Positions 4,520 to 23,616 of a DNA stretch of 64,000 nucleotides are shown piece after piece; the stretch's first letter is position 1; every line of letters begins with the position of its first letter. Under the pieces are notes generated by a model. It was given only the letters and a program-made list of their open reading frames with translations, did no database searches and was not told where the DNA came from. Source of the DNA: Patescibacteria group bacterium (GTDB lineage: Bacteria; Patescibacteriota; Minisyncoccia; GWC2-36-17; WO2-46-25). The stretch lies in contig JBBTXL010000008.1 in NCBI GenBank assembly GCA_038062295.1, forward strand, positions 1,430-65,429. The letters are read 5' to 3'. The translations under genes and the position numbers were made by a program.

Positions 4520-6573
4520 TGCAGGGCGATATTATTCGGTCGTCCATGTTCTACCTTACGTGCGCGGCACTCATCACGCCGCTCGTATTTTCGGTATACT
4601 TCTACCCGACGCACGTCGCGCTCCAGACATTTCTCTTTCGCGGCATCGTGGACGTGATGCTCGCGCTGTGGCTTATCGGCATGGCGCGCGACCGGAGTTT
4701 TGTGCCGACGTTTTCATTGCCGGCGCTTGGCGTTGCTGTGTTCGTGTGTGCCGAATACGCGGCTGCCGCATTCGGGACGGGGTTTTCGCGTAGTTTTTTT
4801 TCTGACTACGAACGACACTGGGGACTGCTAACCATTTCGCATTTTGCCATATTCTTTTTCATTCTGGCGTCGGTATTTCGCGACGGGGTGACATGGCGGC
4901 GACTGTTTGCCGTGTCTGTTGGTGCTGGCGTTCTATGCGCTGCGTACGGTTTGTATCAGTTTTTTTTCACTCCCGATATCGGGCGCATTTATGGTACTAT
5001 CGGGAATCCGGCTTTTTTCTCTTCGTATTTGGTACTCAACGGGCTCGTCGCCATTTTTCTGTGTGTGACGGCGGCAAGCAGGAATGAAAAATTTTTGTGG
5101 GGCGCGGCCGCGATTTTTATCGTGGGTATCGCAATGCTTTCAGGGACTCGCGCGGCCTTCCTTGCCGTGTTGGTTGCGGCGGTGTTCGTGTGGGCGGGGT
5201 TTCTGTGGGGTAGTGCCGCATCACGCCGTGCGAAGCTTGTGACCGCCGGTGCGGGCGTGCTTGCGGCGGCTGCGGTCGGCGCGTTGTTCCTGTTCAATAA
5301 TGCGCCCTGGATAACAGGCAACGAGACGCTCGCGCGTCTCACCCATATTTCTGCGGCACAGGTGACGGGACAGACGCGTTTCTATGCGTGGCGCGCGACA
5401 TGGGATGGTTTCAAAGAACATCCGGTGCTTGGCGTCGGGCCCGAATATTTTGATACGGTGTTCAACAAACATTTCTCATCGGATTTTTACGCACTGGAAC
5501 GGTCGGAAACAGAATTTGACCGTGCGCACAATGTGTTCCTGGAGCAGTTGGCAACCGCAGGAGTGGTCGGCGCGGCTGCCTATGCATTCCTATTTCTGGC
5601 ATTTCTCGCGGCGTTGGTACATGCGGTTCGGCAGGGAACCGCGTCGCGTTTCGGCATGGCGGGGCTTTTGGCGGTTGCTGTTGCGTATTTAGTGCAGGGA
5701 ATGTTCAGCTTTGATTCATTTACAAACTTTCTGCCGCTGTTTTTGGTGTTTGCATATGCGGCCATACTGACACAACGTCCGGCGGGTGAGCGTGAAGCGG
5801 GCGCTCCGTCCGGCGGTGCGGTTATCGGGGCGGTATGCGTTGCCGCGGCGCTTTTGGTTTGGTACGGGAGCGTTCAGCCGGCGCGCGCCGACCGCGCATT
5901 ATCGGATCTCAACGCGGTGCGGGATACCCAAATGGAACTTGATGAAACAACGGCGGTGTCCGCGGCGATGGCCGCCCACAGCGCCGCTCTGGCGCATGAC
6001 AGACAGAGCGCTTCGGTGGCGACACCGCTGTTGGAACGGATCACGCGCGAGGCGTATCTGTACTTTGGCAGGAGCGCGCCGGACGACTTTGAGACAAATC
6101 TTCTGCCGTACGCGCTCCGTCAGGCCGCGGAGAATGTCCGCGCGCATCCGGAAGATTATTTCGCTTCCTACGATCTGGCGCTTGCGCATAACATCGCGTA
6201 TTTGGTCGCCGGCACAAACGATGCCGCTCTCGCCGCGACCGTTGCCCGCGCCGAAACGCTTGCTCCCGGCCGCGTGGAGCTGCAGTTTGCGTCCGCGCAG
6301 CGCTCGCTGCTGCAGTTGCGTTTTGACGACGCTATCGCACACGCGCAGAAGGGTATTGTCACCACTGCATGGTTCCCCGATTTTTACCATATCCTATTTT
6401 TAGCGTATAATTTCAAAGGGGATACGGACCGGGCGTTTGCCGCGGCGGAGAATGGCCTGGCGCATGGTATGCACCTTGCCGACCCGCGCGAGCTACTGTG
6501 GATGGCCGACCAATACCAGCGCCGCGGCATACTCGACAAAGCGGAAGCGTTTCGCATACAAGCAGGACAGTAA
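4516..6573 (+). CDS. O-antigen ligase-like (Wzy_C) membrane protein with C-terminal TPR-like domain, paralog 2
   Basis: ATGA overlap with upstream gene; motifs RFYAWRATWDGFKEHPVLGVGPEYF and FDRAHNVFLEQLATAG; polytopic N-terminal half. Confidence 0.75.
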   Translation: MMQGDIIRSSMFYLTCAALITPLVFSVYFYPTHVALQTFLFRGIVDVMLALWLIGMARDRSFVPTFSLPALGVAVFVCAEYAAAAFGTGFSRSFFSDYERHWGLLTISHFAIFFFILASVFRDGVTWRRLFAVSVGAGVLCAAYGLYQFFFTPDIGRIYGTIGNPAFFSSYLVLNGLVAIFLCVTAASRNEKFLWGAAAIFIVGIAMLSGTRAAFLAVLVAAVFVWAGFLWGSAASRRAKLVTAGAGVLAAAAVGALFLFNNAPWITGNETLARLTHISAAQVTGQTRFYAWRATWDGFKEHPVLGVGPEYFDTVFNKHFSSDFYALERSETEFDRAHNVFLEQLATAGVVGAAAYAFLFLAFLAALVHAVRQGTASRFGMAGLLAVAVAYLVQGMFSFDSFTNFLPLFLVFAYAAILTQRPAGEREAGAPSGGAVIGAVCVAAALLVWYGSVQPARADRALSDLNAVRDTQMELDETTAVSAAMAAHSAALAHDRQSASVATPLLERITREAYLYFGRSAPDDFETNLLPYALRQAAENVRAHPEDYFASYDLALAHNIAYLVAGTNDAALAATVARAETLAPGRVELQFASAQRSLLQLRFDDAIAHAQKGIVTTAWFPDFYHILFLAYNFKGDTDRAFAAAENGLAHGMHLADPRELLWMADQYQRRGILDKAEAFRIQAGQ

Positions 6574-6588
6574 TATCGTGAATATACC

Positions 6589-8739
6589 ATGACCAAGGAC
6601 AACGCACTTTCTTTCTATCTTCGGGCGACAAAATTTTTCATTGGGCTTTCGCTGTTTTCTCCGCTCGTATTGTCGGCCCTTTTTTATTTTCCCTACATCG
6701 TTCCCAAAACCATATTTTTTCAGGTTGCCGTCGAGCTGGCGCTGTTGTTGTGGGCGCTCCTGTGCGTGCTGGATGAAAAGTACCGTCCGAAATTCGACCG
6801 CATTGCCGTTGCCGTGAGCGCGTTCTTTGCCATATACGTCATTGCCGCGCTTTTGGGCGCAAACCCGCTACGGAGTTTTTTGGGAACGTACGAGCGGATG
6901 CTGTCGGTGGTGAATCTCGCGCATTTTATCGCACTGTTCTTCATTGCCCGCGCTGTCTTTGGTACGCCGCGGGAGTGGCTCATACTCCTCCGAACGTTTG
7001 TTGCGGTGAGTGTTGTGGTCAGTGTGTACGCGGTGGCACAGAAACTGGGGTGGGGGTCCTTGGTGTACCATGCGGGTATTGACCGGTTAGATTCCACCAT
7101 CGGGAACGCCGCATTCGTGGGGGGGTATCTTATCTTTGCTATTTTTTTTGCAGTGTTCCTCTTGGTGCGGGATGCGCACACGGCGATGCGCACGCTGTAC
7201 GCCGGTTGCATCGTTTTGAACCTCGCCATTCTGTATTTCACCGGTACGCGCGGCGCGGTGCTGGGTATGGCATGCGCGGTCGTGGTTTTGGTTGTGGGAT
7301 ACCTGTTCCGTCCCCGGACCGTCCCCGGTCTTTCCGCGCGGATGCTGGGGTGGGGGATGGGTGTATTATTCCTTGCAGGTGCGGTGGCGCTGGTTATCGG
7401 CGGAGGCGCGGAGAACGGTGCGCTTTCGTATCTCAAGCGATTCACCTCGGTTTCGCTTGCAGATACCACAGTGCAGACCCGTCTCCTTTCCGTGCAAACG
7501 AGCATGGCGGGATTTAAAGAGCGGCCGGTTCTCGGATGGGGGCCGGAAAACTACAATCTCGTGTTTGACAAGTATTATAACCCCAAGCTGTATCCGACGG
7601 AAAACTGGTTTGACCACGCGCATAACATCGTGTTTGACATCGTGACCACCACAGGCGTTGTCGGCGCGGCGGCATACCTATTTCTCATGTTCGTACTGCT
7701 GGCGGCCTGCATACGGCACGCGCGCGCAGGACCGGAATCGTACTGGCTCGGGGTGTTCGCGCTTGGGCTGCTGGCGGCGTACGGCGCCCAGAATTTGTTC
7801 GTGTTCGACAGTCTGGTGACCTACCTGCCGTTCTTTCTGTTTGCGGCGTTTGCCGCGAATGGTTTTCCGCTCGGACGCGATGCGCAGCTTTCCGACCGAC
7901 CGGAACGCGCAAAGCAATTTGCGAACCCCTCGGCGAAAGCCGCGCTCGCCCTGGTGCCGCTCGCCATGCTTCTTATTTATATGGTGAACGTGCGTCCCGC
8001 GGTCGCCGCGTACTACGCGGTTGTCGGGCTGACGACGAATCCCGCGCATGCCGACGACGCGATGAATTATTTTAAAAGATCCCTCGCATGGGGGAATTTC
8101 GGGGCGCACGAGATCCGCGGCAAGCTTGCGACATACGTGAGTGACCTCCTCGATAATACGCAGATGACCGATGAAGCGGCAAAAGGACGTCTTGCAACAT
8201 TTGTCGTCGCGGAAATGGAGAAAAATATCACCGAACAGCCGCTGGACTTCAGGAATTATTTATACTACGCAAGCTTTCTGAACGACTATGCCGAAGCACT
8301 CGCCTCGTACGGTGTTGCGGACCCCCTGGCGCGTGCCGACGAGGTATTGGCGGTAGCGCAGAAGTTAGGGCCGCACAAGCCCATTCTGCATCTTCAGTGG
8401 GCACAGGTGAAGGTTGCGCGGGGCGATGTTGCGGGTGCGGCACAACTCATGGAAGAAGCCGCAGTACTCCGTCCGGACATGGCGGAGTTCCCGTTGCGCG
8501 CTGGAGGTATGTTCCAGCAAGTAGGGGAGCGTGAAAAGGCTATGGCGTTTTTCAAGGATGTCAAAGAGAGGTTTGGCACGCAGTTGACAGCACAGCAGTT
8601 TGTGCAGCTTGCGGTCGGTTTGGCGAACGGCGGGGACAAAGAAGGGGCGATACAGGCCGCAAAAAAAGCGGTGGAGCTGGACCGGAATCTCTCGGCGGGT
8701 TACGAAGAGTTTGTTCGGAAAGTGAAGGAGATGCCATAG
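6589..8739 (+). CDS. O-antigen ligase-like (Wzy_C) membrane protein with C-terminal TPR-like domain, paralog 3
   Basis: motifs RLLSVQTSMAGFKERPVLGWGPENY and FDHAHNIVFDIVTTTG; same architecture as the two upstream genes. Confidence 0.8.
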   Translation: MTKDNALSFYLRATKFFIGLSLFSPLVLSALFYFPYIVPKTIFFQVAVELALLLWALLCVLDEKYRPKFDRIAVAVSAFFAIYVIAALLGANPLRSFLGTYERMLSVVNLAHFIALFFIARAVFGTPREWLILLRTFVAVSVVVSVYAVAQKLGWGSLVYHAGIDRLDSTIGNAAFVGGYLIFAIFFAVFLLVRDAHTAMRTLYAGCIVLNLAILYFTGTRGAVLGMACAVVVLVVGYLFRPRTVPGLSARMLGWGMGVLFLAGAVALVIGGGAENGALSYLKRFTSVSLADTTVQTRLLSVQTSMAGFKERPVLGWGPENYNLVFDKYYNPKLYPTENWFDHAHNIVFDIVTTTGVVGAAAYLFLMFVLLAACIRHARAGPESYWLGVFALGLLAAYGAQNLFVFDSLVTYLPFFLFAAFAANGFPLGRDAQLSDRPERAKQFANPSAKAALALVPLAMLLIYMVNVRPAVAAYYAVVGLTTNPAHADDAMNYFKRSLAWGNFGAHEIRGKLATYVSDLLDNTQMTDEAAKGRLATFVVAEMEKNITEQPLDFRNYLYYASFLNDYAEALASYGVADPLARADEVLAVAQKLGPHKPILHLQWAQVKVARGDVAGAAQLMEEAAVLRPDMAEFPLRAGGMFQQVGEREKAMAFFKDVKERFGTQLTAQQFVQLAVGLANGGDKEGAIQAAKKAVELDRNLSAGYEEFVRKVKEMP

Positions 8740-13106: not shown

Positions 13107-13152
13107 TTTTGCGCGCCGGCACCAGTATAGTGTCCGTGTTCTTTTTTTGTAT

Positions 13153-13224
13153 TCCGGGGTAGCGCAGCGGTAGCGCAGGCGACTGTTAATCGCTTGGTCG
13201 TGGGTTCGAATCCCACCCCCGGAG
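13153..13224 (+). tRNA. tRNA-Asn (anticodon GTT); no encoded CCA
   Basis: hand-folded cloverleaf: acceptor TCCGGGG/CCCCGGA, D-stem GCGC/GCGC, anticodon stem GGCGA/TCGCT with loop CTGTTAA, T-arm GTGGG-TTCGAAT-CCCAC. Confidence 0.85.
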
Positions 13225-14811
13225 CAACATAGGATTTTGAGAGTATAAATCGCTCATATCTGTATTAACCAAGCAATTTTTGAGAGGTTCTAACCTTTCG
13301 TACATCGCTTTTACCTCATGAGAGGCCTCTTTGATGAGTATGAGCGGTTTTTCTAGTGAGACATTGAGTATTCTGTCTTTTAGCGTGAGGTTCGAACCCA
13401 GAAACATGAGGATACCTTTTTTCACTTCAAGTGAGTCTGTTGTGTCAAAAGTTTTCTTTGCGGTCCGAGCAAACTCAAAATATTTTTCTGCTTGTTCAAG
13501 CCAATCATCTGCTCGTTGCCCAGTATCATCCATCAACATTTCTACGTGATGTTTTTCTTCTAAAAAAGCTGTTTTATTTTTCGCAAACTCCTCATCTGTT
13601 ATATCTCCACCCGCCCGCATACCAATAAGGTTATCAAGCTTTTTAAGCACCTTATCATACTCTTTTCGCTGACTACTGATTATTTGCGTTCTGCCGTGAG
13701 CTTCAACGACATTATTGCTTTTCAGCACATCCAGCGCCCACTCGCAAAAGTCATTAGGCAACTCAATTTCACCTAGAGTGCGGGAGATCTGTTTTTGCAG
13801 TCCCGTCTCTTCAATCGAGCTTTGTGAGCAGTCCGGATTTCTCCTTTTTGTGCAGTGATAGTAGGTGTAGAAATGCACATTGCCATTCTTTTGTCTTTTC
13901 ACTTTAGATTCAGCTGTTATCAAAGCGCCGCATTCTCCGCACATAATCGGACCACGAAAAGCAAAGTCATATTTCTTGGGTCGTGTTGTTGCCTTATTGC
14001 CAAGCAATACTTGTACCCGGTCAAACTCCTGTCTGGTGATCATCGGGGGATGGCCTCCTGTTTTCCAATTACCGCTTCCTCTTGGATATTCAAAATCACC
14101 ATAGTAGAAAGTATCATTTAAAATTCTATACACCGTACTCCGAGCTATCTTCTTGCCTTGTCTGCTTGTAAGATTCCACTCATCTCGTACAATTTGCCAC
14201 ACCTTATTTACCGTATGCCTACCCGTAAGCATAAGCTCAAACATCTTGCGGACCAAATCAAATCGCTCCGGATCCCTCAATATCTCTTTCTCTCCTTTCT
14301 TTTTCAACGGATTGTGCATATAGCCAAGCGTGGCATAGGTTGGATACCACCCTCTTTCCATTTTTGCTCTCAACCCTCGTTTGGTATCCACGCTCAAATC
14401 ACGGATAAACTGATTCGCCATGCCAAGCTCTACCGCCATCATAATCACATTATCTGCCGGGTAATAGCTTCGCCCGTATGTTTGAATGTGTTGGATTGCC
14501 CCTTGTTGCAACATCCAGCTTATCTGGCCGCCGTCAATTGGGTTACGAGCGAGGCGGTTGAGCTTCCAGCAAATAATCCCTTGAGCTTCACCTTTAAGGA
14601 TTCGCTCAAGCATCTTGTTGAAGATCTCTCTGCCGGGCCCCTTTGCGGACTTTGACTCAGTAAAAGTATCCACCACGTTTAATCCATGCTCTTCCGCCAG
14701 TCGTTTAAGCTCGGTGATTTGAGCATCAATGGATGCCATTTGCCGGTCCTCGCTTTCCGATGATTTCCGAGCATAGATGAAGTATTTGATTTTTGCTTTT
14801 TGTTCGTTCAT
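13186..14811 (-). CDS. large serine recombinase (integrase) of the integrated element; 3-prime end of ORF runs into the tRNA-Asn sequence; likely start MNEQKAK at 14811
   Basis: resolvase-type catalytic N-domain YARKSSESEDRQMASIDAQ; recombinase domain; zinc ribbon CGECGALITAESKVKRQKNGNVHFYTYYHC; C-terminal coiled-coil. Confidence 0.85.
   Translation of the reverse strand: MNEQKAKIKYFIYARKSSESEDRQMASIDAQITELKRLAEEHGLNVVDTFTESKSAKGPGREIFNKMLERILKGEAQGIICWKLNRLARNPIDGGQISWMLQQGAIQHIQTYGRSYYPADNVIMMAVELGMANQFIRDLSVDTKRGLRAKMERGWYPTYATLGYMHNPLKKKGEKEILRDPERFDLVRKMFELMLTGRHTVNKVWQIVRDEWNLTSRQGKKIARSTVYRILNDTFYYGDFEYPRGSGNWKTGGHPPMITRQEFDRVQVLLGNKATTRPKKYDFAFRGPIMCGECGALITAESKVKRQKNGNVHFYTYYHCTKRRNPDCSQSSIEETGLQKQISRTLGEIELPNDFCEWALDVLKSNNVVEAHGRTQIISSQRKEYDKVLKKLDNLIGMRAGGDITDEEFAKNKTAFLEEKHHVEMLMDDTGQRADDWLEQAEKYFEFARTAKKTFDTTDSLEVKKGILMFLGSNLTLKDRILNVSLEKPLILIKEASHEVKAMYERLEPLKNCLVNTDMSDLYSQNPMLLRGWDSNPRPSD
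13208..13223 (+). repeat. direct repeat copy 1 (tRNA-Asn 3-prime end, putative att core)
   Basis: GAATCCCACCCCCGGA, identical to 23601..23616. Confidence 0.6.
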
Positions 14812-14935
14812 ATAATCAAAAAGGGATAACCCCGTTGGACACAATCACCCTTGCGAGTTTTTGTAGGCGGAGTTACCCCTCTTTAAATGCAAAAAATCGC
14901 AAATCCCAGTAATTGTGTCCATGTTTATCATACCA

Positions 14936-15601
14936 CTACTTTTGCTTTACAGCAAACCGACCAAACCGCTTATTCAGCCGTGCGGCCATCATAATAAAAC
15001 CGGTCTCAAACTTCTCATTCAGCCGTATTACTCGTCTGTATTTTCTGGTTGGCTTACCCTTGTAATAATATCGCTTAACCTCTTTCTCTGCTTTTTCTAT
15101 GTCAGGGATTGATACAAACCCCTTGTATTTACCACCCTGCATTTGGGAGGCATAAGTAATTCCTCCACAGTGTCGGCAACCGAACCATTTGCCAATGCTG
15201 TAAATCACTCCAACTCTCCGCCCGCAGTATTGCCCATTTTTAGACAGGGGGCATATAAACCAGTATCGCACACCGCCATAATTGCAAGGAGTCATAGTAA
15301 GTTCAATCTTATAATCCATTTCTTCTTTTTCGCTGTTCCATCTGTCTGTATGAGTATAATATAACCTTGCATACGCTCTCTCATCCGGAGTGCCCCAATT
15401 ATCTCTGCTTACAGCAAACCCGATACTACTTTTATTCTCGCTATAGCCGTAAGTCCAAGTAATGCCACCAGATCGATGACTATAATCCTTGTGCAGATAG
15501 CCATGCTTTTTAAGCCAGAAGATACCTAAGCTGTTATTCTGTTCTGCTACACTTTTAGACATAAGCTTTTTCAATCTGCCGAAATCATTAAAGATGAGCA
15601 T
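14936..15601 (-). CDS. hypothetical Cys-rich (zinc-ribbon-like) protein, element-encoded
   Basis: ORF track; CNYGGVRYWFICP...CGRRVGVIYSIGKWFGCRHCGG cysteine pattern; AT-rich codon usage matching element. Confidence 0.5.
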   Translation of the reverse strand: MLIFNDFGRLKKLMSKSVAEQNNSLGIFWLKKHGYLHKDYSHRSGGITWTYGYSENKSSIGFAVSRDNWGTPDERAYARLYYTHTDRWNSEKEEMDYKIELTMTPCNYGGVRYWFICPLSKNGQYCGRRVGVIYSIGKWFGCRHCGGITYASQMQGGKYKGFVSIPDIEKAEKEVKRYYYKGKPTRKYRRVIRLNEKFETGFIMMAARLNKRFGRFAVKQK

Positions 15602-15787
15602 GGTCTTTAAACTTTAAAACCACCATTTTCATTCCCTCTTTGTTATTACTGTTATCATACTGCTTATCAGTATAAAATCCACCATTTCCCGCCATTTTTA
15701 TACAGATAATGTTTTCCATGTTTTTCCATGATATTTTATCTTGCACAACCCCCTCTTTATCAGGTCAATGAACTAAAGCGTATCGTC

Positions 15788-15888
15788 ATAGTTAACTGTT
15801 ACCTTATAGGAAATCTATCATGTAACATAATAGTACTATCATTAAGTTATTCTATATAGTTAACAATACTATAGATAATTAACTATAG
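15788..15888. promoter_or_regulatory. cluster of three ATAGTTAAC/TTAACTAT sites (two direct, one inverted) in intergenic region inside the element; candidate operator
   Basis: ATAGTTAAC at 15788..15796 and 15856..15864; inverted TTAACTAT at 15879..15886; flanked by palindromic CTATAG. Confidence 0.3.
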
Positions 15889-15890
15889 AG

Positions 15891-16217
15891 TCAGAGTGTT
15901 ATCTCTGGATCAATGCCAAGTCTCTTTCTGAAGTGTTCTTCACTTTGTTTGTAGTATTCCTCCCACACTTTCGTTTCTAACTGTTTCCAAAGCTCTTTAT
16001 CGGGAGCAAAGAAGATGGGGTGGTAACTGCCTCCGCCACCCTTGTACGATGGGGGAGTGAGCCATAATTTATCTCCTTTATAATTTGGATGCTGTGATTC
16101 CTGCACCCGGAAGCCCTTTACAACAAAATCTCCGAAATCAAGGGTGATAATCGCTTTTAATTTCTTCTCCTCGATAACTTTCACTTTCACGGTAATTTCA
16201 TCGATATTCATGGTCAT
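15891..16217 (-). CDS. SpoVG-like protein, element-encoded
   Basis: IDEITVKVKVIEEKKLKAIITLDFGDFVVKGFRVQESQH resembles the SpoVG N-terminal consensus (recalled from memory, not searched). Confidence 0.5.
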   Translation of the reverse strand: MTMNIDEITVKVKVIEEKKLKAIITLDFGDFVVKGFRVQESQHPNYKGDKLWLTPPSYKGGGGSYHPIFFAPDKELWKQLETKVWEEYYKQSEEHFRKRLGIDPEITL

Positions 16218-16269
16218 AGTAATATGGTGTTAGTTTATTAAATAAATGCGGTGGCGGGGCTATGCGAGC

Positions 16270-16497
16270 TTATTTTTGGTTGTCCCCGCGCATATTTGAG
16301 AGATGCCAGAGATGAGCCAAAATGCTTTTCTTGCTGGTTTTCTCATAATCCTCATTTTCGACGAGTTTGGAGAACCAGCGGTGTATCGTTTGTTTGCCAA
16401 ATCCTTCTCCTTTTAGCGCTTCAGCAAAACATGTGTAGGAACTCCAATATGGGTTTCTATCCCCAATGTTTTTGAACCGTCTTTCAAGTGATTTCAT
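16270..16497 (-). CDS. hypothetical small protein (element)
   Basis: ORF track only; same strand as neighbours. Confidence 0.3.
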   Translation of the reverse strand: MKSLERRFKNIGDRNPYWSSYTCFAEALKGEGFGKQTIHRWFSKLVENEDYEKTSKKSILAHLWHLSNMRGDNQK

Positions 16498-16509
16498 ATT
16501 TTTATCATG

Positions 16510-16737
16510 TTAGGTTTTGTTAAGTTTTTTATCCTTAGACGCGTAGTTACTTTTTAAGATTAGCTCTACGAATTCTGCCAACCTGATTCCTTTTACCAAT
16601 GCAGTTTCACGGTCCAATACCACGCCAAAATTCTTTCGGTAGATTTGAATGAAGGCATTGATTTGTTGATCCGTGATTCGCATCTTATTTATCGTGTAGT
16701 ATGTATCCTGCTTTTTAGTTCCCTTCTCGCATTCCAA
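16510..16737 (-). CDS. hypothetical small protein (element)
   Basis: ORF track only; overlaps alternative ORF 16689..16964. Confidence 0.3.
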   Translation of the reverse strand: MECEKGTKKQDTYYTINKMRITDQQINAFIQIYRKNFGVVLDRETALVKGIRLAEFVELILKSNYASKDKKLNKT

Positions 16738-16964
16738 AATCCCTTCGGTTCAACGGAAAGAGCGCCGGACCAGAATTGGCTTACGGCATTAGAAAGCTTT
16801 TCACTTTTCTTAAATACAAACCCGACCCTTGGGTGTTCTTTGGGGTCTCTGTTTATCGCCACAATAGGAAATTCCAGATATTGCAATGCTGAACACAGTG
16901 CTAGATCATAGAATTCTTCATGCTCCTCGCTGGGGAGGTACTTAAAATCATCTTTTTGTTTCAT
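16689..16964 (-). CDS. hypothetical small protein (element); overlaps previous call, only one may be real
   Basis: ORF track only. Confidence 0.25.
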   Translation of the reverse strand: MKQKDDFKYLPSEEHEEFYDLALCSALQYLEFPIVAINRDPKEHPRVGFVFKKSEKLSNAVSQFWSGALSVEPKGFWNARRELKSRIHTTR

Positions 16965-17017
16965 ATCATTTTTTTAGTTATTTTATTAATTGCGACCTTG
17001 ATGATTTTTTTAAAAAA

Positions 17018-17053
17018 TAAAAAAGTCATACTAATTACAGTATGACTTTTCTA
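17018..17053 (-). terminator. bidirectional intrinsic terminator (perfect 12-bp stem AAAAGTCATACT/AGTATGACTTTT) downstream of 17097..18035
   Basis: aaaaaataAAAAGTCATACTaattacAGTATGACTTTTctat; A-run on one side and T-run on the other. Confidence 0.5.
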
Positions 17054-17096
17054 TAAAATTTTGTTTGAATATTAGACTAAACCAGACTAAATCGGA

Positions 17097-18035
17097 CTAC
17101 TCTGGATTGTTTTTTATATGAGCAACCTCCAACTGCTTTAAAAATAGAGGTATTTTTACACCAATTTTTACTAAATCTTCTTTTGATATTTCGCCCCCAT
17201 TGTAAACCACCACAGACTTTCCTCTTTTAGGAAAGAAAGCTTTTAATATTTCGGCCTTAAAGCCAAGTTCATTAAGTATTTTTGTAAAGCTTTTATTCTT
17301 TCTTAGTGTATCAGGGATGTCTTGGTTTCTAATTTTTGTATTTTTTGGTTGCGAACGAACATATTCAAAAAATTCAAAGTTAATTCCTACAGCGTGTGGT
17401 TTTCCTATAAGGTATTCGTTAACCAGTATTTTTCGATCTTTAACTGAAATAACGAATTTTGATGGTTCTTGTTTTGTTTGTATTTCTTGAGCAGTTGATG
17501 GGTTAATTTTGAGCTTTTTATCAATCAAATCCTGCACTCGGCGCAATCCATCTAACGAACTTACTTTTAGAAAAACATAACTTTTCAACTCTTCTTTTGA
17601 TGGCAAATAATCGGGTAATTCATTTTCATCAAAAGCTGTAACGCTTGAAGGAAATACAACTCTTGTTCTCTGATACTCTTTTATTTGGTAGAGTAATTCT
17701 GCGTTTGTAACTTTGACACTGTCTACTCTATTCAGCACACCGCTTATATCGTCTGAATATACCTGCTCATTTTCAAACTTTTGTAAAGATATTTTGACCA
17801 CTTCTGTCAATCTATTAACGGGCTGAAGCTGTAAGAAATCAAGAGTAATCTTAATAACTTTTTGAGCAATTTTAAGATTTTCTTGAGTGAGTTTTTCCCA
17901 ATCAAAAATATCCGTATGTAAACTGGAGGGTTTTATCTTTTTCTCTCCATCTCTTTTGAAACCGTCCTCATAACGGCGAAACAGTTTATCAAACTTCGAC
18001 TGGACTATTTCTATGCGAAACAATTTATTACTCAT
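17097..18035 (-). CDS. hypothetical protein (element); start taken at MSNKLF with ATGAGTAA overlap of upstream stop
   Basis: ORF track 17097..18158; internal Met 42 forms overlapping stop/start with 18028..18261 ORF. Confidence 0.5.
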   Translation of the reverse strand: MSNKLFRIEIVQSKFDKLFRRYEDGFKRDGEKKIKPSSLHTDIFDWEKLTQENLKIAQKVIKITLDFLQLQPVNRLTEVVKISLQKFENEQVYSDDISGVLNRVDSVKVTNAELLYQIKEYQRTRVVFPSSVTAFDENELPDYLPSKEELKSYVFLKVSSLDGLRRVQDLIDKKLKINPSTAQEIQTKQEPSKFVISVKDRKILVNEYLIGKPHAVGINFEFFEYVRSQPKNTKIRNQDIPDTLRKNKSFTKILNELGFKAEILKAFFPKRGKSVVVYNGGEISKEDLVKIGVKIPLFLKQLEVAHIKNNPE

Positions 18036-18261
18036 ATTCCCATGTGCCACCTCTATTTTGTATTTTAATAGCACCCCATTCTTCCAGCTTCTCAAGTATT
18101 GCCGCCTTATCTGTGGCTGATGGAGAACTACCAGTGGTGTCAAAAAAACCAAAATCAACCCAATATAAAATTGGGTTGCCTTTTTTGGTATACAGCGACC
18201 TTTCCTTGATTTGTCTTAAAACATACCAGACATTCTGATTAAATTTTTCTTCTGGGGTCAT
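18028..18261 (-). CDS. hypothetical small protein (element)
   Basis: ORF track; translational coupling with downstream gene. Confidence 0.4.
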   Translation of the reverse strand: MTPEEKFNQNVWYVLRQIKERSLYTKKGNPILYWVDFGFFDTTGSSPSATDKAAILEKLEEWGAIKIQNRGGTWEYE

Positions 18262-18438
18262 AGTAATTTATGTTAATTTCATTGTAATTTACCTATATTC
18301 TACCATTTTTCAGCTATTTTTTCAACCTACTAAAACGTTGTGTATTTTTTGCAAATTTTAGTGGTTTATGGTATTTTATAAGCAATAATTAAGCATCGCC
18401 TAACCCTCGTGGTTTTACTACAAGGTATGGCAACAAAC

Positions 18439-18481
18439 ACGGTTCAGGTCATTAAGCTCCTAGTCAGAGCACCTGAACCGT
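18439..18481. promoter_or_regulatory. perfect 11-bp inverted repeat ACGGTTCAGGT...ACCTGAACCGT with 21-nt spacer in divergent intergenic region of the element
   Basis: seen directly; lies between the leftward operon and the rightward 18566 gene. Confidence 0.3.
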
Positions 18482-18565
18482 CATATCCGAAAGGGTATGG
18501 GTGTCGCAAGACATCGCTGGCTGGGAGCTTTGTGTCTATATTCCCACTAGCTTAGAATAATTACT

Positions 18566-21523
18566 ATGAAAATGAGAACACGATTTAGCAGGATAGCTAC
18601 TTTGACGGCATTAACCATTCTTTTGGCTGTGCCTGTTTTTGTTTTCACAGTACCATATTCATATGCGGCACAAAACATTGTTGATGGAGACTTGGTGACC
18701 GTTTCTCCTAATCCAGATATCTATATTGTCAAAATTATAGGTGTCAAAAAGTTTAAAAGGCTCATCCTCAATCCCGATATTTTCGATTCCTATGGGCATC
18801 TCAAATGGAGCAATGTAAAAATGATTGATCAGGCAACCCTTGATTTGTATAAATCTTCTGAACTTGTCATTGAAATCAATGCTGATGGGAGCATTGCCGA
18901 CCCCAAGGTATACAGAGTGGTTTCTTCGGCAAATAGCGATGTTGGCGAACGAAGCTGGTTGAATTTAACAGCTTCTGAATTTGAAGCCGCGGGGTATGAT
19001 TGGGATTCGCTTTATCATGTTAATCATAGAGAAGCATTACCTAGTTTTTACCCAACGAAAAATCCTCTCACATATCAGGATGTTTTAAAAATTAAACAAG
19101 CACCATCTCCATCTGTTCAGGTTGCATTCTCTATCGCGCTAGTTGCTCCGAATAAGATTCTGGCGGGATACGCTACTAATATTGTTATAAAAGGATTTGG
19201 TTTTAAGCAGGGCGCCAGAGTGGACTTTGGATCAGGAGCGACACAAGTACCCTACGGAGTTACGAACTCTGAGCAGATTACCGCACTTATTCCCGCAGGG
19301 ATGCCGCCGCTTACTTATAACCTTTCAATTACGAATCCTGACGGGCAGGTAGCAATTTTAAATGATGCATTAACCTTGCAAGCCTCAACCTCTCAAATTA
19401 TGAATGGTCTGACAACAAGTCAAGTATATGACCTTGTTAGTCCTTCTGTTGTGCAAATAACTAACAATTGTGATAGCTCTCTTGGTAGCGGTTTTGTTTT
19501 TGAAAATGGTGGATACATCTTAACCAATGAACACGTTGTACATGGATGCAGTGCTGTTGGAGTAAAGCTGAAAAGTGGTGTAAATCTTGTGGGAACCGTA
19601 CGTGGGACAGATGCGCTAAATGACGTAGCGGTAGTTAAAATCGACCAAAGTATTCCAACCTTGATTTTAGGTGATTCAAACCTATTTATTGATTCAACTG
19701 TATTTGTTGCCGGACATCCATCTGGTCTTACAAATGTAGTTGTTAATAGGGGTGTTATTAATTCTAGCGGACAACCATGTTTAACCTTTCCTTTGTCCTG
19801 TTCTGGCACTTGGAGTTATCTGACAACGCTTAAATTAGCAGAACATGGTAGTAGTGGAGGGGTTTTGGTGAATGATAAAGGAGAGATTGTTGGATTGCAT
19901 AGAGCAGGAACTGACTCTGTTTCTTTTGCAATACCGATAAATTTCATAAAAGGCATAATACCAACTTTAAAATCTGGAGTATCCACATACACCCCAACTC
20001 CCACACCCTCTCCAGTGCCTACATCCTCTCCAACTCCTGCAACAGTCGTCGCGTTGACTGTCACCAAAAATAGCGGTATGGCTGACGCGACCTCTTCATT
20101 GCCAACGGGCGTGAAGGGAGCGACAAACGTCAAGATCGGTTCATTCGTCTTGACTGCGGGTGCGGGCGAAGCGACATTAGTTAGCCAGATAGTCGTGAAG
20201 AACAGCGCAACCGCAGGATTGGCGTTGGGACATGACTTCCAGAACTTGACTTTGAAGAACGGTACCACCGTTATCGGTTCCCCAATCGGTTCATTGTCAA
20301 CAACGGCAAGCGCGACCTACACCCTTACGCCGTCCTCATCGATAACCATCAATGCGGGACAGCAGTATGTGGTTGACGTGTACGCGGACATCTTAACAGG
20401 ATCTGCAAATGCAGGTGTAGCGGCATATGTTGCAGTGGTATGGGACGATGTGACGGCAGTTGGGAATTCAACAAGCGCCACAGCAGGAGTGGCAACTGAT
20501 GTTATCGGACAAACAGTGTACATCTCAAATGGTGGTTCATTGGTAATCGCAGCGGCTTCAGATATGCCTGTTGCGCAGAACCGCTCAATGGGTCAGACTG
20601 GCCAAACCTTGGTGACATTCAAATTCACTACGGGCGCAAGTGAAGCAGTCAATGTTAGTAAAATCATTGTTACTAACACATTATCAGGTATCGCGATAGC
20701 GGCAACTGGCACTATCACGAACCTCGGATTGTTTAAACCTGACGGGACGCAGGTGGGTACCTACATTTATTATATGACAACGAATAGTGGTCAAGATGCT
20801 CTAGCGACATTCAATGGCCTTACCTTGAATCTTCCGAGAGACACGGCAACGGTCTTGACCTTGAAAGGTGATGTGAACGGCTACCCGAACGGAGTTTCAG
20901 GTAGTGCTCACACTTTCAAGATTGCTACTGTAGCTGATGTTACTGCAACCGGCGCAACCGGCGGAACAACGATTATGGCAAGCGGTCCTTCTATTACAGG
21001 AAACGCGCAGACTGTGTATCGTTCAGAGTTGACTGTAGCAAACGCTATGTCCAACTCCTCGGGTGGTCAGGGTACCGATCAGGTCATAGGTAAATACAGA
21101 TTTACCAATACTTCGGCCGGCAACTACACCATCGCGGTATCTGATATTAATCTTGGATTGACAGGTTCAATTATTAACACTAACGTATCGCGGTACGTTA
21201 CCTTGAAACGGGATTCCGTCAGCGGCGCGACTGTTGCCAAGAAAGTGTTTAAAAACACAAACCTCACAGATATAACAAGTTGGGATCTTTCAGGAACTGA
21301 TAGCAATGAAGTTGCATTCATTCCGTTCACGATTGATTCAGCGGGTGGTACTGGTTACGTTGATTTCTACATATTAGCAGACACTAATGACGCGGCATCA
21401 ACTAGAACCATTTCAACAACCCTTGGAGGTGGCAGTAATGTCATTACATGGGGAGATGGTGTCACAACAGGCATTACTTCGTTGGATAACAAGCCCATCC
21501 CAGGAGCGACCATTACCTACTAA
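18566..21523 (+). CDS. secreted trypsin-like (S1/HtrA-type) serine protease fused to Thr/Ser-rich repetitive surface domain; C-terminal ~480 aa paralogous to the gene at 2..1963
   Basis: signal peptide; protease triad context NEHVVHGC, LNDVAVVKID, EHGSSGGVLVNDKGEIVGLH; C-terminal region SLPTGVKGATNVKIGSFVLTAG...SSSITINAGQQYVVDV...GATITY matches first gene. Confidence 0.85.
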   Translation: MKMRTRFSRIATLTALTILLAVPVFVFTVPYSYAAQNIVDGDLVTVSPNPDIYIVKIIGVKKFKRLILNPDIFDSYGHLKWSNVKMIDQATLDLYKSSELVIEINADGSIADPKVYRVVSSANSDVGERSWLNLTASEFEAAGYDWDSLYHVNHREALPSFYPTKNPLTYQDVLKIKQAPSPSVQVAFSIALVAPNKILAGYATNIVIKGFGFKQGARVDFGSGATQVPYGVTNSEQITALIPAGMPPLTYNLSITNPDGQVAILNDALTLQASTSQIMNGLTTSQVYDLVSPSVVQITNNCDSSLGSGFVFENGGYILTNEHVVHGCSAVGVKLKSGVNLVGTVRGTDALNDVAVVKIDQSIPTLILGDSNLFIDSTVFVAGHPSGLTNVVVNRGVINSSGQPCLTFPLSCSGTWSYLTTLKLAEHGSSGGVLVNDKGEIVGLHRAGTDSVSFAIPINFIKGIIPTLKSGVSTYTPTPTPSPVPTSSPTPATVVALTVTKNSGMADATSSLPTGVKGATNVKIGSFVLTAGAGEATLVSQIVVKNSATAGLALGHDFQNLTLKNGTTVIGSPIGSLSTTASATYTLTPSSSITINAGQQYVVDVYADILTGSANAGVAAYVAVVWDDVTAVGNSTSATAGVATDVIGQTVYISNGGSLVIAAASDMPVAQNRSMGQTGQTLVTFKFTTGASEAVNVSKIIVTNTLSGIAIAATGTITNLGLFKPDGTQVGTYIYYMTTNSGQDALATFNGLTLNLPRDTATVLTLKGDVNGYPNGVSGSAHTFKIATVADVTATGATGGTTIMASGPSITGNAQTVYRSELTVANAMSNSSGGQGTDQVIGKYRFTNTSAGNYTIAVSDINLGLTGSIINTNVSRYVTLKRDSVSGATVAKKVFKNTNLTDITSWDLSGTDSNEVAFIPFTIDSAGGTGYVDFYILADTNDAASTRTISTTLGGGSNVITWGDGVTTGITSLDNKPIPGATITY

Positions 21524-21526
21524 ACC

Positions 21527-21778
21527 ATGAAAAAACTTATCGCCTCTACCGCATTTCTATTTTTATTCATAGCTCTGTTTTATTTTTCCAACCCGGCAGA
21601 AGCAGCCACAAGAACTAGAGGGTACTACAAACCAAGTACTGGTACTTATGTACAGCCGTATTACCGTTCCTCTTCGAACAGCTCAAGATGGGATAACTAT
21701 TCAACGCGAGGCAATTACAATCCCTACACGGGTAAAAAGGGTTATATCAGTCCTTACAAGAGTTATCGGTTTAGATAA
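21527..21778 (+). CDS. small secreted Tyr-rich protein (element)
   Basis: signal peptide MKKLIASTAFLFLFIALFYFSNPAEA then YYKPSTGTYVQPYYRSSS...NPYTGKKGYISPYKSY. Confidence 0.5.
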   Translation: MKKLIASTAFLFLFIALFYFSNPAEAATRTRGYYKPSTGTYVQPYYRSSSNSSRWDNYSTRGNYNPYTGKKGYISPYKSYRFR

Positions 21779-21780
21779 TT

Positions 21781-22131
21781 ATGATCAACAAACTCAACAA
21801 AGTTTTAATCTTATCATGGGCATTGCTTTTTTTAGCGATGCCTATTTTTGTCTCAGCCCATCGTTCCGGTTGTCATCGTTGGCACTCTTGCCCATCTGAT
21901 ACTGGTTCGTATGTCTGTGGTGATTTAGGGCATCCTTGCACGTACCCAACCTATCCCAAGTCTGGTGGTGTTATTTTGCCAGAGAGTGTTGCAACTTTAC
22001 CACAACAACCTCACAAGAAAACCAGTGAAACAGCAAGACAAAAACGGATCACCGTATTGAAAAAGCAGATTTCGGATTTGAGGTTAAAACTTCAGCAATT
22101 AGAGAGCCAACTCAAAGCGCTTGAACAATAA
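21781..22131 (+). CDS. small secreted Cys/His-rich protein with C-terminal coiled coil (element)
   Basis: signal peptide; HRSGCHRWHSCPSDTGSYVCGDLGHPC; C-terminal heptad-like KKQISDLRLKLQQLESQLKALEQ. Confidence 0.5.
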   Translation: MINKLNKVLILSWALLFLAMPIFVSAHRSGCHRWHSCPSDTGSYVCGDLGHPCTYPTYPKSGGVILPESVATLPQQPHKKTSETARQKRITVLKKQISDLRLKLQQLESQLKALEQ

Positions 22132-22212
22132 ATTAAATTGATGTAACAGATGAGTTCACCCGAGTCAAGATATTACGAGACTTTTAGCGGAGTTAGTTTT
22201 TAATCCAATAAT

Positions 22213-22386
22213 ATGGAAATAATAGGTTTAGGTCTAGTCATATTGGGACTTATTTGGACAGTAATCAGTTTTATTATCAAGGTTTTTGTCTATGCTGTTT
22301 ATTTTTTGCCATTTATTGGGTATAAGATATTAGATTTTTTAAGTTTATGGCCACACATTTGGCCACTTAACGGAGTTAGTTTTTAA
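22213..22386 (+). CDS. 57-aa small membrane protein (not in ORF track, below length cutoff)
   Basis: hand translation MEIIGLGLVILGLIWTVISFIIKVFVYAVYFLPFIGYKILDFLSLWPHIWPLNGVSF; ends inside a duplicated ~35-nt motif. Confidence 0.3.
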   Translation: MEIIGLGLVILGLIWTVISFIIKVFVYAVYFLPFIGYKILDFLSLWPHIWPLNGVSF

Positions 22387-22395
22387 CTTAATTAT

Positions 22396-22716
22396 ATGGG
22401 AAAATTTAAATTATCATTACCCATTACAATTTTATTAGCGAGTATTGTTTTAGGCGGCTTCTACTATGCGAGCGAAGCAAACAAACAAAAGTCTACTGAA
22501 AGACAACAGCGAGACGAACAGGTGGTCACCGAAAAAAACCTTTTCGACTTAAAATGGTGTTTAGCGACTGCAGAGGGTGATAGGAAGGATTTTCTAAGAT
22601 TAAACGGTCCTGATGGGCATATTGATGGCCGATATACTAATAATACAACTCTCATACAACAGGCTGAAAGACAAAAAAAGGAAGATGAGCAAAGGTGTTA
22701 TCAGTTATACAAATAA
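22396..22716 (+). CDS. small secreted protein (element)
   Basis: signal peptide MGKFKLSLPITILLASIVLGGFYYASEA; preceded by the duplicated ~35-nt motif. Confidence 0.45.
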   Translation: MGKFKLSLPITILLASIVLGGFYYASEANKQKSTERQQRDEQVVTEKNLFDLKWCLATAEGDRKDFLRLNGPDGHIDGRYTNNTTLIQQAERQKKEDEQRCYQLYK

Positions 22717-22852
22717 TTTATTTCAAAACCAAAAATGCAACCAGGACCTTGGATAGATGCAAACATCTTCGATCCTGATAGCAACGAATTTATTGATGAG
22801 GGGCTGGATGAAGATGATGCTGTTGAATTTGCTGATGAGCTATAAATAGTGA

Positions 22853-23305
22853 GTGGCAGGGTGGGGTAAAAAGGCGTATAGTGAAGTTATGCAAAATGGG
22901 TTAAAAGATAAATGGGTTGAATTTCGTGAGCAACTTGATGCTTTGGGCTACTTGATAGGGGCTGTATTGGTTGTAGGCGCAATTATTTGGGGTATCTATA
23001 GCTTGTTCGGCTGGGGTGAACGAGAAGGTGTAGTGAAGTTTGACGATTGCAGGCAAATGGTAACTCTGAAACCAGATACTTTCCAAAAATACTTCAAATC
23101 CTTTACTTGTATGTATAGGAGAACCGAAAGTGGGAGGATAATGTCGGGTGAGTGTGTCCATATTGATACTGCGGGTACACTGTTTTCAAGCAGTAATGAA
23201 TGTGATACCGCTTATATCTATGAGAAAGAGCAGGAGGGGAGTTGCACGGACCCCAAATATCCATATCTGGGTTACGATGATATGTGTCACACCAACCTGC
23301 AATGA
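22853..23305 (+). CDS. membrane-anchored Cys-rich hypothetical protein (element)
   Basis: ORF track; TM helix LGYLIGAVLVVGAIIWGIYSLFGW; six Cys in C-terminal half. Confidence 0.45.
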   Translation: MAGWGKKAYSEVMQNGLKDKWVEFREQLDALGYLIGAVLVVGAIIWGIYSLFGWGEREGVVKFDDCRQMVTLKPDTFQKYFKSFTCMYRRTESGRIMSGECVHIDTAGTLFSSSNECDTAYIYEKEQEGSCTDPKYPYLGYDDMCHTNLQ

Positions 23306-23501
23306 TACTTTTGAAACAATGAGTAGTTTGATGGGGGTCAGAAGCTCATCGCAAATGAAGGATATTTGAAATGAAACTCACTTTTGCCTTGTAGGAGAAC
23401 AGTTCTAACTTCATCCAGTGCGCGGAGCATCGAAATAAAAAATGTCCCTTTATGGGGTATTTTTTATTTCTGATATTTTAGGAAGTGGGATTCGAAGGGT
23501 A

Positions 23502-23535
23502 TTTCAAAAACAGAAACTGCTTTCTGTTTTTGAAA
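23502..23535. repeat. perfect 15-bp inverted repeat TTTCAAAAACAGAAA-ctgc-TTTCTGTTTTTGAAA ~70 nt inside the right direct repeat
   Basis: seen directly. Confidence 0.4.
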
Positions 23536-23600
23536 ACCCGGGCTCTGGAGGAGTATATTTTTCTTGTGCATATATGCACGAAAAATATGCGGGGGAAGAG

Positions 23601-23616
23601 GAATCCCACCCCCGGA
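23601..23616 (+). repeat. direct repeat copy 2 (putative attR core)
   Basis: GAATCCCACCCCCGGA identical to tRNA-Asn 3-prime end. Confidence 0.6.

Follow-up and report, generated by a model that had tools for sequence, protein, structure and literature searches.

Here we describe a 64,000-nucleotide stretch of DNA (referred to as the window) from an Azambacteria-like member of the Patescibacteria, an ultra-small groundwater bacterium. It contains the 3' part of a long surface-protein gene of the host (2..1963, forward strand) and an integrative island of 10.4 kb (13208..23616), the cargo of which includes an open reading frame (18566..21523, forward strand) that encodes a predicted secreted protease fused to a homologue of the C-terminal tail of the host protein.

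Host surface-protein gene and integrative island

The host gene is truncated by the start of the window, and the translation of its 653 codons is a 100% match to the protein P0121. The full host protein has 1129 aa (partial) to 1147 aa (the call on NCBI contig CAYICE010000003.1) and consists of a signal peptide, an N-terminal module (N-module), a PT linker and six beta-sandwich domains of ~160 aa. The host copy of the three-domain tail is located at 470..1960 (forward strand; aa 157-653 of the window frame) and has a G + C content of 0.63 at 4-fold degenerate sites. Variation among the long proteins peaks in the tail (46-60% in domain C versus 70-78% over most of the two-thirds towards the N-terminus), which is probably their distal part. 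Gene 2..1963 had 0 matches to Pfam or NCBIfam, and Pfam matched no SLH, CWB2 or similar anchoring module in either the long protein or the island protein; PG_binding_1 is present in homologues that are more distantly related to the long protein. The long gene is immediately followed by three tandem genes of Wzy_C (O-antigen-ligase-like) membrane proteins (2093..8739, forward strand; Pfam), the first with TPR repeats. This order is conserved across relatives, with at least one Wzy_C or Wzy-like gene 3' of the long gene at loci L003, L010, L006 and L021, and three at L003. The designation as a surface-layer gene, given by an earlier reading of the sequence alone (the sequence-only reading), is plausible.

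The island is integrated into a tRNA-Asn(GTT) gene (13153..13225, forward strand; ARAGORN). The left att core (13208-13223), within the 3' end of the tRNA gene, is a 16-nt exact direct repeat (GAATCCCACCCCCGGA); its second copy, the right att core (23601..23616, forward strand), duplicates the tRNA-Asn 3' end. By our own arithmetic, the chance expectation for such a 16-nt repeat in 19.5 kb is about 0.04. The stop codon of a large serine recombinase gene, the integrase (13186..14844, reverse strand; Pfam Resolvase, Recombinase and Zn_ribbon_recom; PHROG 95 integrase, E = 1.6e-59), overlaps the 3' end of tRNA-Asn; a 16-bp core at a tRNA gene is more typical of tyrosine than of serine integrases. 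The other leftward genes (14936..18158, reverse strand; Pfam, PHROGs, PADLOC) comprise a 221-aa ORF, a SpoVG-like gene (15891..16217), three small ORFs (one DUF5659-like) and a 353-aa ORF, and the region 16120-16972 is syntenic with locus L001 (62-75% aa). The rightward genes (21527..23305, forward strand) encode small, mostly signal-peptide-bearing proteins of 83, 116, 57, 106 and 150 aa. The genes flanking the fusion are syntenic with L001 and L002, and the 83-aa gene, which matches phrog_29674, is kept beside the fusion gene at both loci (tblastx about 86% aa).

The G + C content at third codon positions (GC3) is 0.29-0.46 inside the island and 0.60-0.71 outside, with host-type values returning from the ORF at 23726; at 4-fold sites, island genes have a G + C content of 0.41 versus 0.72 in the flanks. 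The integrase beside the tRNA gene, the direct repeat at the far end and this shift in composition identify a tRNA-targeting island, and the earlier assignment of gene 18566..21523 to a mobile element was borne out on the same grounds. The empty site would read ...GGTTCGAATCCCACCCCCGGA followed by ACGCTTGACAAATAGC, and the circular attP junction would join 23560-23600 to 13224-13260; in look-ups with both flanking proteins, all contigs that carry the exact flanks and are long enough also carry island genes. Capsid, portal, terminase and tail genes gave 0 structural PHROG or Pfam matches in the island, and a search of IMG/VR with the whole fusion protein yielded 0 relatives. PADLOC detected no defence system; the protease domain has a weak match to RT-Protease_XI (E = 1e-10) with no RT present, and the remaining island proteins had no PADLOC match. 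A promoter and terminator scan revealed no enrichment over shuffles.

The island-borne protease fusion

The fusion protein consists of a signal peptide, the N-module, an IPT domain, an HtrA-type protease without PDZ, a PT linker and the three-domain beta-sandwich tail, in this order. It shares with the long-protein family the succession of signal peptide and N-module and a C-terminal three-domain tail ending in G-A-x-[IV]-T-Y. Missing are the central three beta-sandwich repeats, the place of which is occupied by the IPT domain and the protease, and the position upstream of Wzy_C genes.

The predicted Sec-type signal peptide (18566..18667, forward strand; aa 1-34, ending in SYA before AQ) was read by eye. 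It is followed by the N-module (18668..19135, forward strand; core aa 38-156), an alpha/beta domain found at the N- or C-terminus of many secreted proteins of Patescibacteria, for which Pfam has no family and PDB no matching fold; its core is 36% identical to that of the host protein P0121 and 36-42% to the long-protein family. The IPT/TIG-like Ig domain (19136..19420, forward strand; aa 191-285) is 76-82% identical to those of P0002, P0003 and P0004; PF01833 is recorded for P0003 and P0006-8.

The protease domain (19421..20005, forward strand) is of the S1C (HtrA/HhoA/DegQ-like) type. It matches Pfam Trypsin_2 over aa 307-444 (76.2 bits versus a cutoff of 27.6) and the PDB entries of HhoA, HTRA1 and DegQ (E 5e-25 to 1e-15), and the motifs of the catalytic triad are intact and in order: TNEH(323)V, ND(353)VAV and GSS(430)GG, with the catalytic codons at 19532-19534 (H323), 19622-19624 (D353) and 19853-19855 (S430). 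Pfam matched no PDZ domain in the fusion, and the NCBIfam equivalogs for HtrA, DegP, DegQ and DegS all scored far below cutoff (e.g. 104 versus 450 bits). By fold profile and triad, the island protein is an S1C-type serine peptidase with predicted activity. Like HtrA, DegP and HhoA (MEROPS S1C), it has a homologous protease domain (HhoA, E = 5e-25) with intact His-Asp-Ser motifs; unlike these proteins, it lacks PDZ, and the protease is embedded between surface-protein modules. The predicted Sec signal peptide, the Trypsin_2 match and the intact triad uphold the description of the N-terminal half as a secreted trypsin-like protease. The presence of a protease in the chromosomal copy, which had been considered impossible to check, could be examined in the full-length long protein P0121, where the domain is absent according to Pfam, NCBIfam and sequence inspection.

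The head of the fusion is a mosaic: N-module and IPT domain are 70-82% identical to those of P0002 and P0003, whereas the protease domain is 62% identical to that of P0010 but only 41-44% to those of P0002-4. The gene is under purifying selection (dN/dS 0.12-0.16). A Pro/Thr/Ser linker (20006..20053, forward strand; composition P31 S19 T19 V19) forms the junction of head and tail, and homology to the long proteins begins at aa 496/497. The tail (20054..21523, forward strand) comprises the domains A (20054-20545), B (20546-21040) and C (21041-21520), followed by the stop codon, and its homologues are the final three domains of the long proteins. A PDB sequence search with the tail profile gave 0 matches at E <= 1, and structure matches were limited to generic beta-sandwiches.

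Comparison of the tails in the window and among relatives

The tails of the island and host proteins are the only two copies detected in the window by tblastn. BLASTP of ORF 18566..21520 against the frame 2..1960 aligned island aa 497-985 (489 residues) with window-frame aa 157-653 (342/499 identities, 69%; 80% positives; 12 gap positions; E = 0), and blastn returned one collinear HSP (20085..21523 versus 501..1963, 67.5% over 1478 nt); for the host tail at 470..1960, the nucleotide identity to the island tail is 67.6%. Because BLASTP statistics are composition-adjusted, the match is not an effect of Thr/Ser low complexity, and the homology of the shared C-terminal module claimed in the sequence-only reading holds at 69% aa identity; the alignment, which had been called residue-for-residue, is nearly so, being collinear but interrupted by four small indels. 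The earlier hand count of 75 of 87 identical nucleotides between 728..814 and 20315..20401 is exact; the patch (86%) is the best-conserved one and unrepresentative of the whole alignment. Since it is likewise conserved between the host gene and its orthologue P0122 (0.80), it represents a constrained core, and a conversion tract was ruled out by this equal conservation (80%).

The window copies are saturated at synonymous sites (pS = 0.69, dS about 1.95), and no homology between them was seen beyond the stop codon. The island tail is most closely related to the long protein of Ca. Azambacteria RIFCSPHIGHO2_02_FULL_52_12 (L005/L010), with 78% aa identity, 76% nt identity and a dS of 0.95 versus L010, compared with about 69-70% aa identity to its own host; in the sub-region aa 826-900, the island tail is 77% identical to its own host versus 69% to L010. 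At 4-fold sites, the G + C content of the island tail (0.40) equals that of the other island genes (0.41, p = 0.88) and differs from that of the host tail (0.63, p = 6e-8), and the head of the fusion is unusually AT-rich (0.29). Raw GC3 along the fusion gene is 0.24 in the protease and rises to 0.53 in tail domain A; this step was dropped as a sign of a recently host-derived tail, since the 4-fold-site value of the tail is that of the island. The comparison of GC3 along 18566..21523 that had been proposed as a check, once restricted to 4-fold sites, returned an island-like tail composition. The tail exchange in this window is ancient, and among the lineages sampled, the closest to the donor is an L010-like Azambacteria rather than the present host. 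The description of the island tail as a close paralog that had recently recombined with this host gene is not supported, given the saturated divergence, the island-type composition of the tail and the closer relationship to L010. With such a donor lineage, the tail was probably already part of the element on its arrival, or came from a relative that has not been sampled.

Three or four fusions with this tail are known, on short contigs. In neighbour-joining trees with few taxa, three protease fusions (P0001, P0002 and P0004) are each closest to a different long-protein group: the tail of P0001 falls into a clade with L010/P0122/P0121 and that of P0002 into a clade with P0130/L021/L020/L019 (100% bootstrap each), and that of P0004 is 80% identical to L015/P0123, with a placement support of only 32-67%. 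The fused tails are only 54-63% identical to each other, and the head-linker-tail breakpoint is the same in all three proteins; P0003 has a different domain set (Z-B-C). Between P0002 and L021, dS by thirds is 1.24, 0.55 and 0.07. The P0002 locus, L004, includes a 450-nt tract (3098-3546) that is 97-100% DNA-identical to a long gene, and the homology extends beyond the stop codon to a truncated fragment of a Wzy-like gene, a flank from the locus of that long gene. This fragment of the long gene's neighbour points to a transfer from host to fusion, although the direction is not strictly resolved. Recurrent tail replacement by recombination with resident long surface-protein genes is supported by these sequence comparisons for this family; each fusion would carry the tail of a particular long-protein lineage because tails were repeatedly replaced. 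The cassette exchange envisaged in the sequence-only reading does occur between fusions and long genes in the family, but is not recent in the window pair. The same kind of fusion is indeed present in relatives (P0002 and P0004) but not among GTDB genomes, where the search returned long proteins only. To extend the comparison to other tail types, the tail of P0010 was searched and gave two short fragments, and P0018, a distant family member, is chromosomal and not element-borne. No description of the protein family or the element was found in the literature.

It is scarcely credible that the window copies are the donor-recipient pair of a recent cassette exchange between the element and this host gene. 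Their collinearity over 489 aa, the 86% DNA identity of the local patch and the slightly greater similarity of aa 826-900 to the resident host are outweighed by the saturated synonymous sites, the equal conservation of the patch between host and P0122, the island-like 4-fold-site composition of the tail, the overall proximity of L010, and the end of homology at the stop codon. Plain ancient paralogy, that is, one old fusion with no later exchange and a similarity without function beyond that of shared beta-sandwich spacers, would agree with the common breakpoint of P0001, P0002 and P0004, with the saturated divergence between the window copies and with the domain shuffling that is common among secreted proteins of Patescibacteria. 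We consider it unlikely, given that the fused tails are polyphyletic (100% bootstrap for two of three placements), that domain C of P0002 is 97-100% identical to that of a long gene and is accompanied by the flank of this gene, and that the tail is under purifying selection.

If the tail belonged to a cassette reservoir for antigenic variation, DNA would flow from the element to the host, in the manner of Campylobacter fetus sap or pilS-type systems. Points in its favour are that no other part of the long proteins varies as much as the tail, that recombination between both gene types is documented, and that the direction of transfer in L004 is not fully settled, but the fusion is a complete ORF for a predicted secreted protein with an intact triad and a dN/dS of about 0.12-0.16, each locus has one extra copy without a silent-cassette array or an invertible or conserved recombination box, and the truncated neighbour fragment in L004 points to the opposite direction; this makes such a reservoir quite improbable. 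Very improbable is a role as a phage or virion component, a receptor-binding protein or depolymerase in which the host-like domain docks and the protease breaches the surface. The integrase is of the phage type, and the protease region and the 83-aa gene match phrog_11383 and phrog_29674, respectively, both without assigned function; however, the island comprises only 10.4 kb without capsid, portal, terminase or tail matches, IMG/VR contains 0 relatives, and the protein has a predicted Sec signal peptide and an N-module that also occurs in many cellular secreted proteins. Fold matches among viral structures (BFVD) did not exceed a TM score of 0.24 and lend no specific support to the receptor-binding module that had been suggested.

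Proposed role of the fusion protein

The reading that we favour, and regard as fairly likely from the sequence data, is that of a mosaic HtrA-like surface protease that is carried as island cargo and brought to the location of the long protein by a borrowed, repeatedly swapped tail. The N-module would hold the protein at the cell wall, and the tail would direct the protease to the assembly or ligand engaged by the long protein's own tail. Proteolytic activity would thereby be placed within or beside the host surface array, as with S-layer-associated proteases, and recurrent tail swaps may result from selection for a continued match with the local long protein. A strict model in which the tail must match the host is weakened by the identity of the island tail to its own host (70%) versus L010 (78%).

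The principle, a mobile-element enzyme that borrows a host surface-targeting module, has precedents in pneumococcal lysins and clostridial Cwp proteins. In Clostridioides difficile, Cwp84 processes SlpA, and the surface protease and the major array protein share a non-catalytic targeting module that brings the protease to the array (PMC4973711). The island protease and the long protein likewise share non-catalytic modules. However, Cwp84 is a cysteine protease whose gene is chromosomal and belongs to the S-layer locus, and its shared module is CWB2, whereas the protein described here is a serine protease of the S1C type, is encoded on an integrative island, and shares the N-module and three beta-sandwich domains without a CWB2 or SLH match in Pfam. 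Pneumococcal prophage lysins share a choline-binding module with the host protein LytA, and recombination yields chimeras with host flanking DNA after the stop codon (PMC8637289). The island protein resembles them as a mobile-element enzyme with a putative C-terminal surface-targeting module that has a homologue in a host protein, and the L004 locus, with flanking DNA past the stop codon, has the same pattern as the lysin/LytA chimeras. The lytA pairs are recent, with high DNA identity, and their enzymes are murein hydrolases for lysis; by contrast, synonymous sites in the window pair have reached saturation, and a protease is encoded by an element that cannot be recognised as a phage. The cohesin-type and Ig-like beta-sandwich modules of cellulosomal scaffoldins and fibrillar adhesins are also among the closest known systems.

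More tentatively, and by analogy with phage tail-fibre swapping, the tail may be a specificity module that recombination keeps matched to the main surface protein of the current host, using the tip of the host's own surface protein, so that the protease is inserted into or aimed at the surface array. If so, the protease could remodel the array for element transfer, competitor exclusion or a change in how the episymbiont attaches to its partner, and the tail of the long protein would form a tip that self-associates or binds a ligand and by which surface types of Patescibacteria are defined.

The cell-surface biology and mobile elements of the Patescibacteria (CPR), most lineages of which are uncultured, are almost unknown. 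This locus identifies a conserved candidate major surface protein of ~1150 aa adjoining Wzy-like genes, and also reveals a widespread, uncharacterised N-terminal module, a small tRNA-integrating island and a protease family with a putative targeting tail that is exchanged time and again with the surface-protein gene of the host. If the tail acts as a lineage-specific targeting module, it would allow surface types and the matching of elements and hosts in the CPR to be traced from sequence.

Shared tail and its two carriers

The island ORF at 18566..21523 (+) encodes a protein of 985 aa (P0001), whose C-terminal region is collinear with the 5'-truncated ORF of the host surface-protein gene ending at 1963. 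Island aa 497-985 matched window-frame aa 157-653 of the host ORF with 342/499 identical residues (69%), 80% positives and four small indels (BLASTP with composition-adjusted statistics, E = 0), and at the DNA level the two copies of this tail, a beta-sandwich region of three domains (A, B and C), gave a single HSP of 1478 nt with 67.5% identity. The similarity is therefore real and not due to low-complexity Thr/Ser composition, the objection that the sequence-only reading had itself raised; its alignment of the two C-termini holds, and its hand count of 75/87 identical nt (728..814 versus 20315..20401) is exact, although 'close' paralog is too strong a term for this moderate similarity. A third tail copy was not found within the window (tblastn). 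In NCBI, an 'S1C family serine protease' from a Patescibacteria MAG has exactly the sequence of the island protein (100% identity), and the window matches contig CAYICE010000003.1 of GCA_964361915.1, from the same population as the Hainich groundwater (Hain_*) assemblies.

Judged by its sequence features, the island protein is probably exported. A signal peptide, recognised by eye at aa 1-34, is followed by an N-terminal module (core aa 38-156), an IPT/TIG-like domain (aa 191-285), an HtrA/HhoA/DegQ-like protease domain (aa 286-480; Pfam Trypsin_2, 76 bits; PDB matches to E = 5e-25) with the catalytic triad H323/D353/S430, a Pro/Thr/Ser linker (aa 481-496) and the tail of 489 aa, in agreement with the predicted secreted trypsin-like protease in the N-terminal half. 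A PDZ domain, as in canonical HtrA, is missing, and every NCBIfam model for HtrA scored far below its cutoff. The part preceding the linker (head) is a mosaic: the N-module and IPT domain are 70-82% identical to those of two other head-tail fusions (P0002 and P0003), whereas the protease is 62% identical to that of P0010 and only 41-44% to those of P0002, P0003 and P0004. The gene is intact and under purifying selection (dN/dS 0.12-0.16).

The full host protein (P0121; 1129 aa, partial; 1147 aa in the gene call of the NCBI contig) consists of a signal peptide, an N-module, a PT linker and six beta-sandwich domains, the last three forming the tail; a protease domain was not found in it. The N-modules are 36% identical, so that the two proteins are alike at both ends and unlike in the middle. 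Azambacteria and related MAGs encode orthologues of ~1140-1170 aa, and the tail is the least conserved part of these long proteins (domain C, 46-60% versus 70-78% over most of the N-terminal two-thirds). An insertion of 6-12 aa in domain C (alignment columns ~441-460; island aa ~905-915) is present in the long proteins L010 (where it contains two Cys), L015, P0123, P0126, L016 and L006, and missing from the fused tails of P0001 and P0004 and from the host protein and its orthologue P0122.

In every locus examined, the long gene lies upstream of genes for Wzy_C-type (O-antigen-ligase-like) membrane proteins, some with TPR repeats (window 2093-8739; L003, the P0122 locus, 8115-17942; L021 6691-9042); the window and L003 each have three such genes in tandem. 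This adjacency suggests glycosylation or polymer attachment tied to the long protein. PG_binding_1 is found at the N-terminus of more distant homologues; together with the Wzy_C context, this fits a major surface protein that is associated with the wall, is possibly glycosylated and might act in an S-layer. A stand-alone Trypsin_2 protease gene (239 aa; L003 1241-1960), ~2.5 kb upstream of the long gene, suggests a chromosomal tie of an S1 protease to the long surface protein.

Putative mobile island and its cargo

The proposal that the fusion gene is element-borne is well supported. A tRNA-Asn (13153-13225) marks the boundary of a putative mobile island of low GC with a large serine recombinase (13186..14844; Pfam Resolvase/Recombinase/Zn-ribbon; PHROG 95 integrase) and a perfect 16-nt direct repeat that matches the tRNA 3' end (13208-13223 and 23601-23616); GC3 is 0.29-0.46 in island genes versus 0.60-0.71 in host genes and returns to the host level at ORF 23726. 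The recombinase ORF and the tRNA share 40 nt (13186-13225), at the stop-codon (3') end of the former and the 3' end of the latter. For a serine integrase, an att repeat of 16 bp derived from a tRNA is uncommon; tyrosine integrases show this pattern more typically. Phage structural genes were not found in the island (PHROG/Pfam scans), nor was a defence-system match, relatives of the island protein in IMG/VR, or an empty integration site when contigs with the flanking proteins were looked up.

Immediately 3' of the fusion gene lies a gene for a secreted Tyr/Ser/Arg/Pro-rich protein of 83 aa (21527-21778), which is conserved (~86% aa) at L001 5690-5948 and L002 2739-2997, matches phrog_29674 and may work together with the protease. 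The island also carries a SpoVG-family gene (15891-16217; Pfam E = 3e-9), which is unexpected in an integrative element of small size, and a 36-nt direct repeat (83% identity; 22184-22219 and 22367-22402) spanning the starts of adjacent ORFs of 57 and 106 aa, which appears to represent duplicated 5' regions of small secreted-protein genes. A gene for a Fic/DOC-family protein that has an HTH at its C-terminus (25636-26748) lies just beyond the island, where GC is intermediate (24-28 kb).

Age and origin of the island tail

Synonymous sites are saturated between the two window copies (nt identity 0.676, dS ~1.95, pS 0.69, dN 0.228). The closest relative of the island tail, at 77-78% aa identity, is the long protein of Ca. 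Azambacteria RIFCSPHIGHO2_02_FULL_52_12 (L005/L010; present also on a 649-kb JGI contig), with nt identity 0.762, dS 0.95 and dN 0.148, versus 0.704, 1.36 and 0.207 between the host and L010 tails. The Wzy-like neighbour genes of the L010 organism are only 52% identical to those of the present host, indicating separate lineages. GC at 4-fold sites is 0.40 in the island tail and 0.41 elsewhere in the island, versus 0.63 in the host copy (p = 6e-8) and 0.72 in host genes. Therefore, the island tail split from the L010 lineage after the latter had parted from the present host, and the window copies are cousins.

A donor-recipient relationship between them was rejected because of this saturation and the greater proximity of L010. 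The raw GC3 step within the island gene might be read as the sign of a host-derived tail, but it arises because the head, and most of all the protease (0.21), is unusually AT-rich, and the 4-fold GC of the tail equals that of the rest of the island. Similarly, the 78-80% patch containing the 87-nt match could be taken for a conversion tract, but the host gene and P0122 are just as conserved there, and the patch reflects constraint instead. The observation of the sequence-only reading is thus confirmed and its interpretation partly supported: an element-borne gene, a tail homologous to that of the host and recombination within the family stand, whereas a recent exchange with this host does not.

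Tail exchange and its proposed role

The head and tail are combined in only three other proteins among 5.8 billion (P0002, P0003 and P0004), and a metagenome scan yielded no further fusions, adding long proteins only. The fused tails are mutually just 54-63% identical and form no clade in neighbour-joining trees: that of P0001 groups with L010, P0122 and P0121 (100% bootstrap), that of P0002 with P0130, L021, L020 and L019 (100% bootstrap; 85-86% identity), and that of P0004 is nearest to L015 and P0123 (80% identity; placement bootstrap only 32-67%). These three proteins have a common head-tail breakpoint (aa 497 in P0001, 489-497 in P0002, 324-345 in P0004), which points to homologous tail replacement inside an existing fusion rather than to independent fusions. 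The tail of P0003 (L001 2738-5671) lacks A and instead joins the long-protein domain that lies before it to B and C, so that the sites of recombination differ from one fusion to another.

In the clearest case, the P0002 locus (L004), a fusion gene has recently recombined with the locus of a long gene. Compared with the long gene L021 of the same JGI sample, aa identity rises from 73% (A) to 87% (B) and 97-100% (C), and dS falls from 1.24 to 0.55 and 0.07. DNA identity to L020/L021 is 97-100% at L004 3098-3546, and beyond the stop codon the homology takes in the intergenic region plus ~134 codons from the start of the Wzy-like neighbour gene, ending before a HEPN/NTase pair. Recombination as a process of this family is well supported. 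Across L004 3098-4248, the 3' tract that is 97-100% identical to L021/L020 is followed by a truncated Wzy-like copy and then by the HEPN/NTase toxin-antitoxin genes.

We propose that the N-module would tether both proteins at the wall, with the tail as a distal, lineage-specific end for self-association or ligand binding, and that a protease with the same tail would be delivered to the same place; recurrent tail replacement would keep it compatible with the resident long protein. Strict matching of the tail to the host long protein is a narrower possibility, but the island tail fits L010 better than its own host, and P0018, a distant fusion, is encoded on the chromosome next to a type IV pilus operon. 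The nearest functional analogue is Cwp84/SlpA of C. difficile, in which a surface protease and the S-layer protein that it matures carry the same anchoring module (PMC4973711). The nearest evolutionary analogue of the exchange is the pneumococcal prophage lysin and host lytA, whose shared C-terminal targeting module recombines, with host flank after the chimeric gene (PMC8637289). The island protein lies outside both families: CWB2, SLH and choline-binding repeats are all missing from it. The locus presents a phenomenon of a known kind in uncharacterised protein modules of a poorly known phylum.
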